64,000 nt of DNA, from contig CAZYHZ010000009.1 of the NCBI GenBank assembly GCA_964647625.1, positions 16,056-80,055 on the forward strand, written 5' to 3'. Positions 39,982-52,071 of the stretch are shown piece by piece (positions within the stretch are counted from its first letter, which is position 1; each line of letters begins with the position of its first letter). The position numbers and the translations under genes are program-made. The notes under the pieces are model-generated. The model was not told where the DNA came from, did no database searches, and saw only the letters and a list, made by a program, of their open reading frames with translations. The stretch is from an uncultured Acidobacteriota bacterium (GTDB lineage Bacteria; Acidobacteriota; Polarisedimenticolia; Polarisedimenticolales; DASRJG01).

Positions 39982-40225
39982 GCACGTACGATACGGCGGC
40001 CCACTGGACGCGTCCAGCCGTCGCGACGGTTCCCCGTTGTCGCAATGCAACCCGCTACCGCACGAGCAACGGAACCGTCGATGGGGCCTGGGTCCTCTGA
40101 CATGCGAGGTTCGCCTCAGGCCACCGCGGTGACGGGGTGGTACAAAACGGAAGAGACCAAATCGATCAATGTTTGCGTGGGTCTCCGGAGCCGAAAGCCG
40201 TCCCAGATTTGCGGGGCCGAGGGCG

Positions 40226-40253
40226 GCGGGTTCGATTCCCGCCGCCTCCACCA
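40226..40253 (+). repeat. ssrA: tmRNA-like 3' fragment, att scar copy 1
   Basis: GCGGGTTCGATTCCCGCCGCCTCCACCA gives a T arm, an acceptor strand with U70, A73 and CCA; no matching 5' half upstream. Confidence 0.8.
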
Positions 40254-40486
40254 CACAACTCTTTCTCCTCGCGTCGCTTGCGGCGGGCACGCGTCCGCGT
40301 TGTGCTTCTATCGTGCTCCGCAGTCGGCGCCATGGTTCCCGGCTACCGCGGGAGGCGCGATACGCGCACGACTAATCCAACAAGGGTTCTCGGAAGCGCC
40401 AGGGATCCGAATTAGGGGTGCACAGAGCCCGGCTTGTTCCGATTGCACGCTCGGGCTGAGTAGTTGGAGTGCCGCATTTTCCAATT

Positions 40487-46593: not shown

Positions 46594-46806
46594 AGTTGCC
46601 GTGCGGCACGATTGAAACGAGCGAATCATCGTCACGATCGCACGCTGGGTGGGTTCCGGTCGGCTCAGCCGCACCTCGGAATCACGTGCGCCGTCGGGAT
46701 ACACGAGCCTCAGGGAGCGAGGCCTGATGGGAAGGTTGCCGCCATGGAACGCCATGGCGAGCACGCGCTAATATGCTCGGCTCTCGCCCGGCAAGGAGCC
46801 GGTCAT

Positions 46807-48117
46807 ATGGCAGATTGCTTCGCGTTTCTCGACACGAACACTCTTCTCCACTACCGTCGATTCTCGGAAGTCGACTGGCCTTCCGAGCTCTCCAGCCCGA
46901 CGGTTACCATCATCATCTTGCCCACCGTCATTGACGAGCTCGACGCGCTCAAATCGGAGCACCAGCTTAAGCACATCCGCACGCGTGCGAAGAGCCTATG
47001 TCAGCATGTCTTGGAACTGACCGTTGACGGAGACCCGGTGGCGCTCAAGTCGAATGTGCGCCTGCAACTGACACCTGATTCGGCCTCCCCGACAAACCAA
47101 GAAGTCGAATCAGGTGGTGATGACCGCATTCTGTCGGACGTCCAGGAGCACGCCCGCGCGCATCCGGGCGCTCGGCACGTCCTCGTCACTGCCGACACAG
47201 GGCTCACTCTACGAGCCCGACGACGCGCCCTGGAGGTCGTTTCACTTCGCGATGCCCTTCTTCTTCCGGACGAGAGGGACCTACTCGAACGACAAGTACA
47301 AACTCTTCGCGCGCAGCTCGCTGACCTCGAAAATAATCTCCCGAACCTCCATCTGGTCGTCGGGAACAACTCGGACCGGTTCAATTGTGAATTGGACCCC
47401 GACCTCGAACCTACGGCCGGTCTCATCGCGCAGCGAATGGCTGAAGTGCGGGCGAAGTACCCCAAGCTTAAGTCGAGCACCGAATTCGATGGGATAGCGC
47501 TCGACTCGCCGTTCGCCAAGGCGATTGCTGCATTGCAGGCGAATCCATTACACACCGTGCTACCGAAGGACGTCGATCAGTACAACACCGGTTTGGACTC
47601 GTTTTACGTCGATTACGAACGATACTTGCCTGCTCTAATCGAACATGAAAACAATGTGCGCCGGACGGCGCGATTGGAATTAACGCTGCGCAACGACGGC
47701 GGGGCTCCGGCCGAAGACGTCGACATCATGCTGCACCTCCCTGATGGTTTCGAGGTCTTCGATGCCGAGGAGCGGCCCGAGCCACCCCCGGCTCCGAAGC
47801 CGCCGATTCGCCCGAACTCCTTGGCCGAACGCTTCGGTGCTGCGGGGGGGATAGGACTTCGTATCCCTTCGCTAACACACCTAGGTCCACCCCCAAACGT
47901 ATCCGTTCCCACAATCAAGAAGACCAACAGTTACCGAGTTGATTTTCACGTTCGGAACCTCAAGCACGGATTCGCCGTTGCTCTCCGGCCACTCTTCTTG
48001 GCGTTCCCAACAGGCGGCGTCCGCTCGTTCGCGTTCGAATACGCGCTCGCACCTTCCAATCATCCGAAGCCGGCCTGCGGAAAGATCCACGCGCACTGTC
48101 GCCAGCGTTCAACTTAA
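46807..48117 (+). CDS. PIN-domain protein with coiled coil and unknown C-terminal domain
   Basis: FLDTN, VIDELD.LK, DDRIL and LVTAD.GL motifs. Confidence 0.8.
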   Translation: MADCFAFLDTNTLLHYRRFSEVDWPSELSSPTVTIIILPTVIDELDALKSEHQLKHIRTRAKSLCQHVLELTVDGDPVALKSNVRLQLTPDSASPTNQEVESGGDDRILSDVQEHARAHPGARHVLVTADTGLTLRARRRALEVVSLRDALLLPDERDLLERQVQTLRAQLADLENNLPNLHLVVGNNSDRFNCELDPDLEPTAGLIAQRMAEVRAKYPKLKSSTEFDGIALDSPFAKAIAALQANPLHTVLPKDVDQYNTGLDSFYVDYERYLPALIEHENNVRRTARLELTLRNDGGAPAEDVDIMLHLPDGFEVFDAEERPEPPPAPKPPIRPNSLAERFGAAGGIGLRIPSLTHLGPPPNVSVPTIKKTNSYRVDFHVRNLKHGFAVALRPLFLAFPTGGVRSFAFEYALAPSNHPKPACGKIHAHCRQRST

Positions 48118-48240: not shown

Positions 48241-48432
48241 GTGGGTTCCCGCCGTTGTGCTCCTGCTATGCTCCCGCAGCGTCCGGCCCTGGCCCTGAAG
48301 TGTCCGCGCTCCGTCCGACTCTTGCATACCGGGCGAACCGCAACTCCTTCCGCCTGGCCAACTTCTGACCCGTACCGACCGACTTTCGACCCAACCTGTC
48401 CGGCTTTGGCCAACCCTGAATCGAGTGCTGGT

Positions 48433-48460
48433 GCGGGTTCGATTCCCGCCGCCTCCACCA
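48433..48460 (+). repeat. ssrA: tmRNA-like 3' fragment, att scar copy 2
   Basis: Identical to 40226-40253. Confidence 0.8.
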
Positions 48461-48677
48461 CAACAGCTTCGCATCCACCACTTTCGAGAAACGTACTCCC
48501 GGCGGCCCGGCGGCAGCCCACTTTCAACGTCGTTACCGATTACGACCGATACCGGCCATTCTCGGAGATTTCTTGGCGGGGAAATCGGGCGATCCAATTT
48601 CGAAGCGTTGACAGGCCTTGCTCCTGACGGTACACAGCCACCCGCACTTCGGGACCGAACAGGAGCGGGGCAAACGA

Positions 48678-51600
48678 ATGATCGTGACGAGTCGAATCGT
48701 GCGACTCATCGGTCTCACCGTGCTAACGGCGTTGGTCCCGCTGCTCCCGACACCCGCGAGCGCTCAGGCCGAGACCGTCATCGCTTCGGACAACTTCAAT
48801 CGCTCCAATGAGACTCCGTTCGCCAGTACGGGAAACTGGGGTCACGTCATTGCGGGTAACTACCAGGGCACTTCGAGTCTGGTCAGCAATCAAGTGCGAA
48901 GCGCTTCGCAAGAGGGGATCTATTACTGGAAGGGCGCGGGAACATTCGACCCCACGAAGCAGTTCGCGAGAGAGCGGGCCGTGCAAAAGGACGGCGAGCT
49001 CGGGCTCGTCCTCCTGGGTGGACCGGATCAAGCCCTCATGGTCAGCTGGGGTCCGCCCGGCGTCGGCAACACGCTTTACATCTATTGGTACGCGGGGGGT
49101 GCCGCTCAGTCCGTGCTGGCCACCGCGCCCTCGTCTTTGGCCAATGGAGACATCATCGAGGCCGCTCTCCAAGGCGGGTTCATCTACGCGAAGGTCAATG
49201 GAATCATCGTCGCCAAGGTCCCCAATACGACCACTCTGACGTCGGGGCGGCCCGGGTTCATCACGTATCTCGATCCGAATCTGCCGGCTCAGGTCTCCAT
49301 TCTCGACGACTGGTCCGCCGGCGCGCCGGCCGCGTACACGATCGGCGGAACGATCACGGAAAACGCCGCCGGGCTGAGCGGAGTCCTGGTGACCGCCAGT
49401 GACGGGCTCAGCGCGACGGCGACGACCAACGGATCCGGTGCCTACACGATCTCGGGGGTGCCGGCCGGCGCAACCTCCATCGTGCTGACGCCGACGCTGT
49501 CCGGTCACACGATGACGCCGACGTCGCGCGCGGTGGCCGGCCCGGTGAACGCGAACGTGACGGGTCAGAATTTCACGAGCACCCCCGTGACGGGTGTCAC
49601 GCTGACGATCAACACGAGCCACGGCACCGTCACACGGAATCCCGATCTGCCTTCGTATGCGTTCGGGACGAACGTCACGCTGACTCCGGTGCCCGACGCC
49701 GGGTACCAGTTCGCCGGATGGAGCGGCGACGTCCCGGTAGGGCACGAATCCGACAATCCGCTGGTCGTCACGATGGATCAGAACCGGACGATCACCGCCG
49801 GGTTCGTGTCGCCCGGTGTCGTCGCCTTCGATCACTTCGATCGAGCCGACGAGACCCCGCTCACCGTCGGAGGCAACTGGCAGAAGCCGTTCTCGGGAGG
49901 CTCCGCCAATCTCACGAGCAACCACGTCGCGGGCGCGTCGGGCGAAGCACTTTACTACTGGCAAGGCCTCGGCACGTTCGACAACACGCGACAGTACGCG
50001 CGGGCAAGAGTGGTGCAGACGGGCGGGCAGGCGGGTCTGTTGCTGCTCGGCGGTCCCAATCAAGCGATCGCCATCGCGTGGGGTGCCGGGCAGCTCTACA
50101 TCTACTGGTACTCCAACGGAAACTACCAAGCCGAGCTGGCGCGGCAAACTTCCACGCTTCAGGTCGGCGACGAGATCGAAGCCGTGCTCGAGCAAGGAAA
50201 GATCTTTGCGAAGATCAACGGCACCGTCATCAAGAACGTGGCGAATACGACGAGCCTGACCTCCGGTCGGCCGGGGTTTGAAACGTATCTGTCGGGCGGA
50301 GCCATCGACGACTGGGAAGCAGGGACACCGCAGGACTTTTCGATCGGTGGGACGATCACCGAGAATGGGAGTGGGCTGAGCGGCGTGTCGGTGACGGCGA
50401 CCGGCGGATACAGTGGAAACGTGACCACCGGCGTCGACGGCACGTACACGATTGCGGGAGTTCCGTCCGGCGTCACGTCGGTCCTCCTGACCCCCACGCT
50501 GACGGGACATACGATGAGCCCGGTCACGAGATCGGTGACAGGTCCTGCTCTGGGAAACGTCACGGGTCAAGACTTCGCAAGCACGCTGATCACGAACGTG
50601 GCGCTGACCACGACGGCAAACCACGGAACCGTGGCGAGGGATCCGGATCTGGCGGCGTATTCGTACGGCGCGACCGTCACGGTGACGCCGAACCCCGCTC
50701 CGGGTTACCACTTCACCCGCTGGGGTGGCGACGTTCCGCCGGGCGACGAGACGGACAACCCGCTGGTCGTGTCGATGACTCAGGACCGGTCGATCTCGGC
50801 GATCTTCGTATCGTCGGAGGTCCTGGCATCCGATTACTTCGAGCGCCCCGACGAAACGCCCATCGCCGTCACGGGTGACTGGCGGCAGACGTTCTCGGGC
50901 GTGACCGCCGATCTGACGAATCGCCGCGTGACGGGCGGCCCGGGTGACGCGGTGTACTACTGGCAGGGCGCCGGCGCCTTCAGCAACTCGAGGCAGTTCG
51001 CGCGTGCGCGCGTCGCCCAGGCCGGAGGGGAAGTGGGCCTCGTGTTGCTCGGCGGAGCCAACCAGGGGTTCGTACTGACGTGGGCCGGGGGCCAGCTTTA
51101 CTTCTATTGGTATCTGAACGGCACGCATCAAGGGGATCTCCTGATCCTTCCTTCGACGATCGCGACCGGCGACACGATCGAAGCGGTGCTCGATTCCGGG
51201 ACCATCTACGGAAAGGTCAATGGCGTCGACATCGGAAGCCTCGCGAATTCGACGAGCTTGTCGTCCGGGCTCCCGGGGTTCCAGCTGAGGCTCGCCGGTG
51301 GCGCCCTCGACGATTGGGAGGCCGGAACGCTTGCGGTGAGCTGCACGGGCGCACCCAACGGAACGCCCTGCAACGACGGCAACCCGTGCACGTTCAACGA
51401 CGCGTGCACGGGGGGAACGTGCGCGGGAACCCCTGGATCGGCTCCCACGGAGGTTCAAGGCGTCGTCCTCGACGGGCAAACTCCCACGGGCCTGGCTTGG
51501 GCGGCTGCAAGTGGAGCGGTCTATGACGTGGCCTCGGGGGCGCTCTCCGATCTACGCGTCGATGGAACGACGAGCGCAGCGTGCCTGTCGAACGACGGTA

Positions 51601-51749
51601 CGGCCGCCGGCTACGTCGAAAACCGCCCGGACCCGGCGCCGGGTGCCGGCTACTACTACATCGTCCGGGCGCAGAGCGCCTGCGGCTCCGGAACCTACGG
51701 ATTCGCCTCGACCGGTCAGGAGCGCGTGCCGACCGCCGCTTGCCCCTGA
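48678..51749 (+). CDS. Large secreted modular repeat protein
   Basis: Signal peptide; three copies of an (S/F)D.F.R..ETP...DDW.AG module; two carboxypeptidase-regulatory-like and two InlB-B-repeat-like modules; Cys-rich repeat and Cys-containing tail. Confidence 0.85.
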   Translation: MIVTSRIVRLIGLTVLTALVPLLPTPASAQAETVIASDNFNRSNETPFASTGNWGHVIAGNYQGTSSLVSNQVRSASQEGIYYWKGAGTFDPTKQFARERAVQKDGELGLVLLGGPDQALMVSWGPPGVGNTLYIYWYAGGAAQSVLATAPSSLANGDIIEAALQGGFIYAKVNGIIVAKVPNTTTLTSGRPGFITYLDPNLPAQVSILDDWSAGAPAAYTIGGTITENAAGLSGVLVTASDGLSATATTNGSGAYTISGVPAGATSIVLTPTLSGHTMTPTSRAVAGPVNANVTGQNFTSTPVTGVTLTINTSHGTVTRNPDLPSYAFGTNVTLTPVPDAGYQFAGWSGDVPVGHESDNPLVVTMDQNRTITAGFVSPGVVAFDHFDRADETPLTVGGNWQKPFSGGSANLTSNHVAGASGEALYYWQGLGTFDNTRQYARARVVQTGGQAGLLLLGGPNQAIAIAWGAGQLYIYWYSNGNYQAELARQTSTLQVGDEIEAVLEQGKIFAKINGTVIKNVANTTSLTSGRPGFETYLSGGAIDDWEAGTPQDFSIGGTITENGSGLSGVSVTATGGYSGNVTTGVDGTYTIAGVPSGVTSVLLTPTLTGHTMSPVTRSVTGPALGNVTGQDFASTLITNVALTTTANHGTVARDPDLAAYSYGATVTVTPNPAPGYHFTRWGGDVPPGDETDNPLVVSMTQDRSISAIFVSSEVLASDYFERPDETPIAVTGDWRQTFSGVTADLTNRRVTGGPGDAVYYWQGAGAFSNSRQFARARVAQAGGEVGLVLLGGANQGFVLTWAGGQLYFYWYLNGTHQGDLLILPSTIATGDTIEAVLDSGTIYGKVNGVDIGSLANSTSLSSGLPGFQLRLAGGALDDWEAGTLAVSCTGAPNGTPCNDGNPCTFNDACTGGTCAGTPGSAPTEVQGVVLDGQTPTGLAWAAASGAVYDVASGALSDLRVDGTTSAACLSNDGTAAGYVENRPDPAPGAGYYYIVRAQSACGSGTYGFASTGQERVPTAACP

Positions 51750-51774
51750 TCGGTCAACTGATTCGGAGCCCGTT

Positions 51775-51802
51775 GCGGGTTCGATTCCCGCCGCGTCGAG
51801 CA
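51775..51802 (+). repeat. ssrA: Degenerate tmRNA-like 3' fragment, copy 3
   Basis: First 20 nt (GCGGGTTCGATTCCCGCCGC) are identical to copies 1 and 2, then GTCGAGCA replaces CTCCACCA. Confidence 0.65.
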
Positions 51803-52071
51803 CCCCCGCGACCCGAATGTCAATCTGCCGGAGCGTGCATTCCTTCGGCGAAGGAGCGGTCCTCAGGGCCTCGTCACCACTCTGCGCGGTTCGAGTTCAC
51901 CAACGTTCGCTCTAGAACGGGTAGGGCCGCAACATCACTTTCGATAAGCGCGGCTCAAGTACAGCGAGCACGTGCAGCATCATTGCGAGCGCACCTCTAT
52001 CCGCGGGAACCCCCGGTGTGTACATCGGTCATATCCGGCTGCGGGCCACTGCCGGTCGCATGAGGTGCTCC

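Follow-up and report, generated by a model that had tools for sequence, protein, structure and literature searches.

A conserved PIN nuclease family with an unnamed beta-sandwich module: a candidate self-contained conflict system in an Acidobacteriota genomic island

The gene and its product

The window analysed here is a stretch of 64,000 nucleotides from an uncultured Acidobacteriota bacterium, in which the gene at positions 46807-48117 encodes a PIN-domain protein whose C-terminal part belongs to no named family. Among PIN nucleases, the VapC toxins and the components of multi-gene defence systems are well known. An earlier reading of this gene, made from the letters alone (the sequence-only reading), had described a PIN ribonuclease of about 436 amino acids with no small antitoxin gene, in which the nuclease is followed by a heptad-like linker and a beta-rich, Pro-interrupted domain, and had offered two roles for it, a self-regulated sensor-effector or a second effector for the STAND protein encoded upstream. 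We have followed up this reading by profile searches, structure prediction and comparison of loci. The gene and its parts are the following.

46807..48117, + strand: whole gene, 436 codons and a stop, for a protein with the order PIN / helical linker / beta-sandwich
46793..46798, + strand: Shine-Dalgarno-like AAGGAG, 8 nt before the ATG at 46807, read from the sequence
46807..47262, + strand: PIN_4 nuclease domain, residues 1-152, from Pfam PF13638, tetrad conservation and structural matches
47263..47340, + strand: amphipathic heptad-patterned helix and linker, residues 153-178, from the AlphaFold2 helix at 157-176 and alignment column counts
47341..48114, + strand: C-terminal module, residues 179-436, with a beta-sandwich core at 179-196 and 286-436, confidently modelled by AlphaFold2 (predicted local distance difference test, pLDDT, mostly >90)
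47395..47661, + strand: helical insert within the sandwich, residues 197-285, from AlphaFold2 and the alignment
47794..47814, + strand: PxxPxxP motif P330/P333/P336 in a Pro-rich loop, from the alignment of 159 members

The open frame containing the gene runs from 46612 to 48117 on the + strand, and within it the ATG at 46807 is preferred as the start because all homologues begin at the equivalent position, a few residues before an FLDTN motif in the alignment, and because the AAGGAG element precedes it; with this start the product has the length that had been anticipated. No clear promoter or terminator was found near the gene, and no tandem repeats or Rfam families were found around it apart from fragments of transfer-messenger RNA (tmRNA).

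A PIN domain of the SMG6 type

The N-terminal domain is matched by Pfam PIN_4 (PF13638) over residues 8-147, with an E-value of 1.5e-13 and 51.7 bits against a gathering cut-off of 21.9. Across 159 aligned family members the catalytic tetrad D9, E44, D105 and D130 is 94-100% conserved, and T10, K49, R60 and D106 are conserved beside it. The active site is intact, as the sequence-only reading had supposed from the acidic residues. The tetrad consists of the same four acidic residues as in SMG6, where they are D1251, E1282, D1353 and D1392 (PMC5499597).

Structure prediction, which the sequence-only reading had proposed as a check, was carried out by AlphaFold2 with 15 homologues (pLDDT 84, predicted template modelling score, pTM, 0.53) and with 149 homologues (pLDDT 92.9, pTM 0.71), the latter pTM suggesting that the full-length model has a defined overall arrangement. 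The prediction consists of a PIN fold over residues 1-152, a helix at 157-176 and a beta-sandwich with an insert. Over the PIN domain the pLDDT exceeds 90 and the model adopts the alpha/beta/alpha fold of PIN proteins. Among 48,161 PDB representatives searched with this model, the structure nearest to the PIN domain is Nmd4 (Z 13.3, 139 aligned residues, root-mean-square deviation 3.4), and EST1A/SMG6 (Z 12.8) and Utp24 (Z 10.7) are also matched; VapC toxins score lower, at Z 8.4-8.8, than the RNA-decay and rRNA-processing PINs at Z 12.8-13.3 (Nmd4, EST1A/SMG6). Foldseek agrees, ranking eukaryote-type RNA-decay and processing PINs first, and the family sequence profile also matches the PIN domain of EST1A in the PDB.

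Other libraries added little to this assignment. No NCBIfam model was matched by the protein, and the match in PHROGs is limited to the PIN part of phage PhoH-like proteins (phrog_2765, residues 7-152), the protein having no Pfam match to a C-terminal PhoH ATPase domain of the PhoH2 type. A library of viral structures returned nothing beyond PIN or generic sandwich matches. Most likely, the N-terminal domain is a metal-dependent PIN endonuclease of the SMG6/Nmd4/Fcf1 (PIN_4) type, probably an endoribonuclease with RNA as its predicted substrate.

The linker and the C-terminal module

The short, coiled-coil-like helix modelled at residues 157-176 follows an a/d pattern in which I164, L167, L171, L174 and I178 are hydrophobic and the other positions charged, as counted from the alignment columns, and the linker ends before a nearly invariant P179; this supports the heptad-like linker of the earlier reading. 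Its expectation of a beta-rich, Pro-interrupted domain holds as well, as AlphaFold2 places sandwich strands at 181-196 and 287-433, interrupted by the helical insert and by a Pro-rich loop at about 319-368. In this loop P330 is conserved in 100%, P333 in 99% and P336 in 94% of the 159 members, and residues 321-340 are modelled with pLDDT 89-97 when 149 homologues are used. The insert is of a different character. Its residues 221-260, to which variability is confined, vary more and carry more indels than any other part of the family, and its long helix at 253-285 presents a conserved aromatic face (Y259, N260, L263, F266, Y267, Y270, Y273 and L274).

The best-conserved stretch of 20 residues in the whole protein, 301-320, falls in the C-terminal module, within a wider motif N296-x-G298-x-x-P301-A-E-D-x-D ... 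H-F-P312-D-G314-F; the motif LELTLRNDGGAPAEDV singled out by the sequence-only reading corresponds to residues 287-305, just upstream of this stretch and overlapping it. Over the family alignment the C-terminal module of 258 aa is as conserved as the PIN domain or more, and must therefore be under strong constraint. In Pfam it has a single sub-threshold match, to NEW3/NPCBM_assoc at 287-316, and no family names it. Its structural matches include YcnI (Z 10.4), the receptor-binding domain of alpha-2-macroglobulin (Z 9.7), integrin calf, AP2 mu2 and cohesins, and as many unrelated beta-sandwich binding modules tie in score, the fold class alone can be assigned to it. A profile of the module matched no PDB sequence at E<0.1 (best E 0.18), and a single-sequence search for the module in other architectures returned family members alone. 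The module probably binds a protein or nucleic-acid ligand.

Size and distribution of the family

A word-indexed search gave 15 relatives of full length, with 24-44% identity in alignment, and an exhaustive profile search over 1.84 billion representatives of 50% identity clusters gave 7,548 matches, 2,408 of them with E<1e-30. The best 150 of the profile matches are 405-514 amino acids long and nearly all cover the whole profile. The cluster labels of the ESM Atlas read solely "PIN domain-containing protein" or "hypothetical protein", and some members are labelled "rRNA-processing protein FCF1" by JGI. Our literature search found no paper that names the family, and RefSeq contigs carrying family members were not seen in the accessible part of the DefensePredictor supplements.

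For the comparison of loci, a pattern-limited scan with one genome per species was used, which gave 78 loci, in 75 of which the family gene was called. These span Acidobacteriota, Verrucomicrobiota, Bacteroidota, Chloroflexota, Planctomycetota, Gemmatimonadota, Cyanobacteria, Myxococcota and others. The family gene is present as a shortened copy in about a dozen of these loci: it is split into two open reading frames (ORFs) or interrupted in L045, L063, L066, L071 and L074, and shortened or cut by a contig end in L033, L040, L041, L043, L062, L067 and L073. Such shortened or split copies are either pseudogenes or the result of long-read frameshift errors in metagenome-assembled genomes (MAGs). 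At L063, the gene is broken by an insertion that has two copies of a 300-aa ORF, oppositely oriented, at its flanks. A swap of the C-terminal domain was considered for L049 and L082, where the full profile matched residues 1-190 only, and was rejected, as the C-terminal profile matches a divergent copy of the same module there (E 1.7e-5). The ORF at L049, in a MAG labelled Acidobacteriota, is the same as that of genome G321 in our phylum sample, which makes Acidobacteriota the probable phylum of the sample. One locus, L083 (G369:C1:2986825-2987214), has a 156-aa ORF consisting of the PIN domain only, which matches the PIN region of the family with E 2.9e-21; its genome, G369, is the one genome of our phylum sample that has a full-length family member as well.

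Absence of a conserved partner gene

No small antitoxin-like ORF was found beside the gene in the window. ORFs were called in all of the loci and the resulting 1,268 neighbour proteins were clustered all-against-all, and in the 75-78 loci no conserved small ORF was found upstream or downstream of the family gene. There is in fact no conserved neighbour at all, the commonest cluster being a tyrosine integrase found at 9 of 75 loci, followed by rve transposases, IstB, type I HsdR and HsdS, an HTH protein and a Z1-domain protein. Several candidates for a shared partner were tried and rejected, namely downstream neighbours of about 278 aa, which are mutually unrelated, small downstream ORFs of about 109 aa, which are unrelated or spurious, and two tightly coupled upstream genes of 420 aa, which are unrelated. 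An antitoxin RNA or leader near the gene was rejected too, no terminator, promoter, tandem repeat or Rfam match being present.

The sequence-only reading was therefore right that there is no antitoxin, there being neither a conserved small neighbour across the 78 loci nor a flanking RNA element here, and because the former holds for all of the loci, the absence extends beyond the locus in the window to the whole family. Judged by these gene neighbourhoods, the gene appears to work without a dedicated partner.

A tmRNA-bounded island and horizontal acquisition

Around the gene, the 3' end of tmRNA recurs as a direct repeat.

40209..40254, + strand: left direct repeat, tmRNA 3'-end fragment, from repeat family D1 and a partial Rfam tmRNA match
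48416..48461, + strand: right direct repeat, tmRNA 3'-end fragment, 299 nt after the stop of the gene
51758-51803: third, decayed copy of the tmRNA 3'-end repeat

The first two of these bound an 8.2-kb island with just four genes, which encode a PDC-M56 ATPase, its small partner, the STAND protein and the PIN protein, and the repeats have a 28-nt core that matches without difference the 3' end of an intact ssrA found on another contig of the same genome, C55. This ssrA (C55:29808-30159) is at the very end of C55, which stops 28 nt past it, and the assembly probably breaks at the tmRNA repeat. Between the first two repeats there is no integrase. The interval from the second to the third repeat is filled by an ORF of 1,043 aa (48618-51749) with InlB-type B-repeats (Flg_new_2) and CarboxypepD_reg domains, and a 918-aa ORF antisense to it (48723-51479) has no Pfam match and is probably spurious.

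The G+C content of the gene is 58.7%, compared with 68.1% for the window outside the island, and among the 42 loci with long flanks the family gene has a lower G+C than DNA more than 3 kb away in 38, by a mean of 7 points, these loci being not fully independent of each other. The protein was not found in 60 relatives, including 9 genomes of the same genus, and a sample of 400 other genomes from the phylum contains the family in 2, a distribution at odds with the known housekeeping family that the sequence-only reading had kept in view. Among 50,697 phage records there is no family match, and among 72,556 plasmid records one weak match. By its patchy occurrence, its composition and its island setting, the gene is accessory and horizontally acquired.

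Neighbourhoods in other genomes

The 119 immediate neighbours of the family gene elsewhere are a mix of defence-type, mobile and housekeeping genes. Type I and III restriction subunits, Z1, McrBC, an SLFN-type helicase, KAP NTPase, IetS, PDC-S04 and PDC-S13 make up the defence-type neighbours, and IS66 and integrases the mobile ones. When tightly coupled or large neighbours are considered, 7 of 10 are defence-type, namely GmrSD, HNH, KAP NTPase, NACHT STAND, HsdR, a DACNV sensor-domain protein and PIN_12. In a conjugative megaplasmid of Novosphingobium, a family member lies between HipA toxin-antitoxin (TA) modules and an integrase. Taken together, the neighbourhoods look like a defence-island association.

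Some of these loci have arrangements of their own. At L037 (18717-20331), in a Mucilaginibacter MAG, a homologue of the PDC-M56 ATPase with 35% identity and its small partner are located about 7.5 kb downstream of the PIN-family gene, with a type I restriction-modification system in between, so that this pair of unrelated candidate systems is found together in an island of another phylum too. On a Planctomycetota chromosome, a 420-aa PIN_12 (DUF4935) gene lies 2 nt upstream of a divergent family member (L069:8712-9974), placing two PIN-type genes in tandem. In two rumen Bacteroidales MAGs (L054:7084-9978 and L057:550-3447), a 964-aa Z1-domain protein and a small upstream gene directly precede the family gene with gaps of 16 and 0 nt, an arrangement that may represent a three-gene cassette of local extent or simply one island shared by related organisms.

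The upstream STAND gene in the window encodes 1,369 aa with a P-loop NTPase core, TPR-like repeats and an N-terminal LmuA/Cap4-like nuclease region, the N-terminus matching PADLOC LmuA over residues 34-111 with E 2e-6, and because of this match it brings its own nuclease-type effector. It is on the same strand as the PIN gene, and the 213 bp that separate the two contain no recognisable terminator or promoter. Co-occurrence of the two genes, another check that the sequence-only reading had named, was sought by BLASTP against all neighbour proteins, which found a homologue of the STAND at none of the 78 family loci, and in the 400-genome phylum sample the PIN family occurs in G321 and G369 and STAND homologues in G092 and G381, without overlap. 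The proposal of a second effector for the STAND is accordingly not supported, the more so as the STAND has a nuclease region of its own. In Rhodohalobacter halophilus (L029:5501-9739), a 1,412-aa NACHT/nSTAND_NTPase5 gene is directly upstream of a family member, with a 255-nt gap and on the same strand; it has no detectable similarity to the STAND in the window although the gene layout mirrors the window, a layout that we attribute to both kinds of genes living in defence islands. From these comparisons, the STAND and PIN genes of the window are best regarded as separate systems.

A candidate self-contained conflict nuclease

We give even chances to the reading that the protein is a self-contained conflict or anti-phage nuclease, in which the C-terminal module gates or targets the SMG6-like PIN, and of the roles that the sequence-only reading had offered, the self-regulated sensor-effector seems the most plausible. 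Under such a reading, a single horizontally acquired gene would act as a conflict or anti-phage system of the abortive-infection type, and the C-terminal module could either keep the PIN inactive until an infection cue appears or bring it to its RNA target. Both the defence role and the gating or targeting by the module are inferred. We are more doubtful about a stronger form of the same idea, that the family is a new and widespread single-gene anti-phage system of the abortive-infection type whose beta-sandwich with the PxxPxxP loop silences the SMG6-like PIN and releases or targets it on a conserved infection cue.

Several observations weigh against a defence nuclease. The C-terminal module is more conserved than the effector, which is unusual for a sensor of fast-evolving phage proteins, and this conservation would fit the binding of a conserved host or nucleic-acid target better. 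A profile search over longer proteins gave no fusion of the module to another effector, which is weak evidence in itself, and signs of the domain shuffling that is typical of defence sensors are thus absent. Given that it is more conserved than the effector and not found in such fusions, the module may bind something conserved, such as a complex of the host, a feature of nucleic acids or a phage component that is widely shared; the variable insert at 221-260 would then be the sole candidate for a specificity element. Some PIN-like domains, moreover, cleave DNA structures instead of RNA. Many of the genes right next to family members belong to ordinary metabolism, among them those for glutamine synthetase, UvrB and CPSase, and the tally of neighbours is a raw count. 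PADLOC-DB v2 contains no convincing match, the best being PDC-M11A (E 0.022) and CARF_PIN (E 0.075), both in the PIN region only, and no NCBIfam model is matched.

Among other explanations, we would hold it unlikely, though deserving some weight, that the gene serves the mobile element that carries it, whether by maintaining the island or plasmid, in competition between elements, or by processing the nucleic acids of the element. Integrases and transposases are its most recurrent neighbours, it is located in an island bounded by tmRNA attachment sites, a member is on a conjugative megaplasmid near TA modules and an integrase, and its G+C is consistently low; however, phage records have none of the family and plasmid records a single weak match, no fixed linkage to any recombinase or replication gene was seen, and mobile carriage is also typical of defence genes, so that this explanation overlaps with that of a conflict nuclease. 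That the protein is the toxin of a TA module whose antitoxin has been overlooked, for instance as an RNA, as a tiny ORF or as a protein with its gene at another place, is improbable. PIN domains are the classic VapC toxins and some members do lie beside TA modules, for example the HipA pairs on the Novosphingobium plasmid, but 75 loci share no conserved adjacent ORF, neither tandem repeats nor known RNA families flank the gene, and the protein is three times the size of VapC, with a strongly conserved extra module and a PIN structurally nearer to SMG6/Nmd4 than to VapC.

A housekeeping or stress factor for RNA processing or decay, as a bacterial analogue of Fcf1, Nmd4 or SMG6, would agree with the closest structures being eukaryotic RNA-decay and rRNA-processing PINs, with the FCF1 label given by JGI to some members, and with a highly conserved C-terminal module, as expected for a conserved cellular target. 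Against it, the protein was not found in the 9 genomes of the same genus, in 60 relatives in all or in 398 of the 400 genomes of the phylum sample, and island context, low G+C and the several split or truncated copies elsewhere count against it too, leaving this a very improbable explanation. Least credible of all is an accessory subunit or second effector of the upstream STAND, forming a two-gene system with this Avs-like NTPase. The shared strand with a 213-bp gap free of recognisable terminator or promoter, and the NACHT STAND directly upstream of the family member at L029, would speak for it; on the other side, none of the 78 family loci has a STAND homologue, STAND-positive and PIN-positive genomes of the phylum sample are disjoint, the STAND has its own LmuA/Cap4-like nuclease region, and the STAND at L029 is not detectably similar to it.

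Relation to known systems

The PIN_4 domains of SMG6/EST1A, Nmd4, Swt1, Rrp44 and Utp24/Fcf1 belong to the same family as the domain described here, by hidden Markov model, by the profile match to EST1A and by fold (Z 10.7-13.3). The SMG6-type proteins share with it the tethering of a PIN to a separate targeting part; they differ in that the gene here is a bacterial accessory gene for a protein without 14-3-3/TPR, helicase or exosome-binding parts, and its C-terminal module is specific to the family. VapC toxins have in common with it the superfamily fold and the acidic active site, whereas here there is no VapB-type antitoxin gene, the length is 436 aa compared with about 130-150 aa for the single-domain VapC, and the signature is that of PIN_4 instead of PF01850.

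The closest precedent for how the gene in the window may work is DS-3, found by DefensePredictor in E. coli, which is a one-protein PIN system without antitoxin that protects E. coli and requires its catalytic residues, and for which auto-inhibition until infection has been proposed (PMC13092281). In DS-3, a protein of 340 aa, one part of the PIN is at the N terminus and the other at the C terminus (PMC13092281); here, the PIN is contiguous and N-terminal (1-152), followed by a beta-sandwich, in a protein of 436 aa, and by this description the two are set apart, the likeness lying in a single PIN protein with no antitoxin. The DUF4935/PIN_12 (PF16289) proteins of bacteria, which are about 350 aa long, begin with a PIN-like domain and end in an alpha/beta part that is uncharacterised (PMC5499597). 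One family homologue carries a precomputed PF16289 label, but the protein in the window has no PF16289 match at E<=0.1 and differs in length and C-terminal fold.

A comparison of another kind is offered by the fused TA sensors of the CapRel type, in which one polypeptide, without separate antitoxin, has a toxic enzyme at its N terminus and a domain for regulation or sensing at its C terminus. The likeness is in the proposed logic and a compatible architecture, the enzymes and folds being unrelated, and auto-inhibition and trigger are hypothesised for the present family.

Significance

The PIN domain itself is nothing unusual, and PIN defence by a single protein is not a new idea, an experimental demonstration without an antitoxin having come just recently with DS-3. 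What is new is an architecture that stays fixed, together with a C-terminal module that has no name and the large size of the family. For the annotation of this genome, it follows that its STAND and PIN genes should be treated as separate systems in one island. If the family did not serve defence, a sizeable family of mobile nucleases would remain. If a role in phage defence proved true, it would represent a common and compact system that brings a new regulatory or targeting domain to an SMG6-type RNase, and it would offer a clean model for the antitoxin-free restraint of a PIN nuclease.

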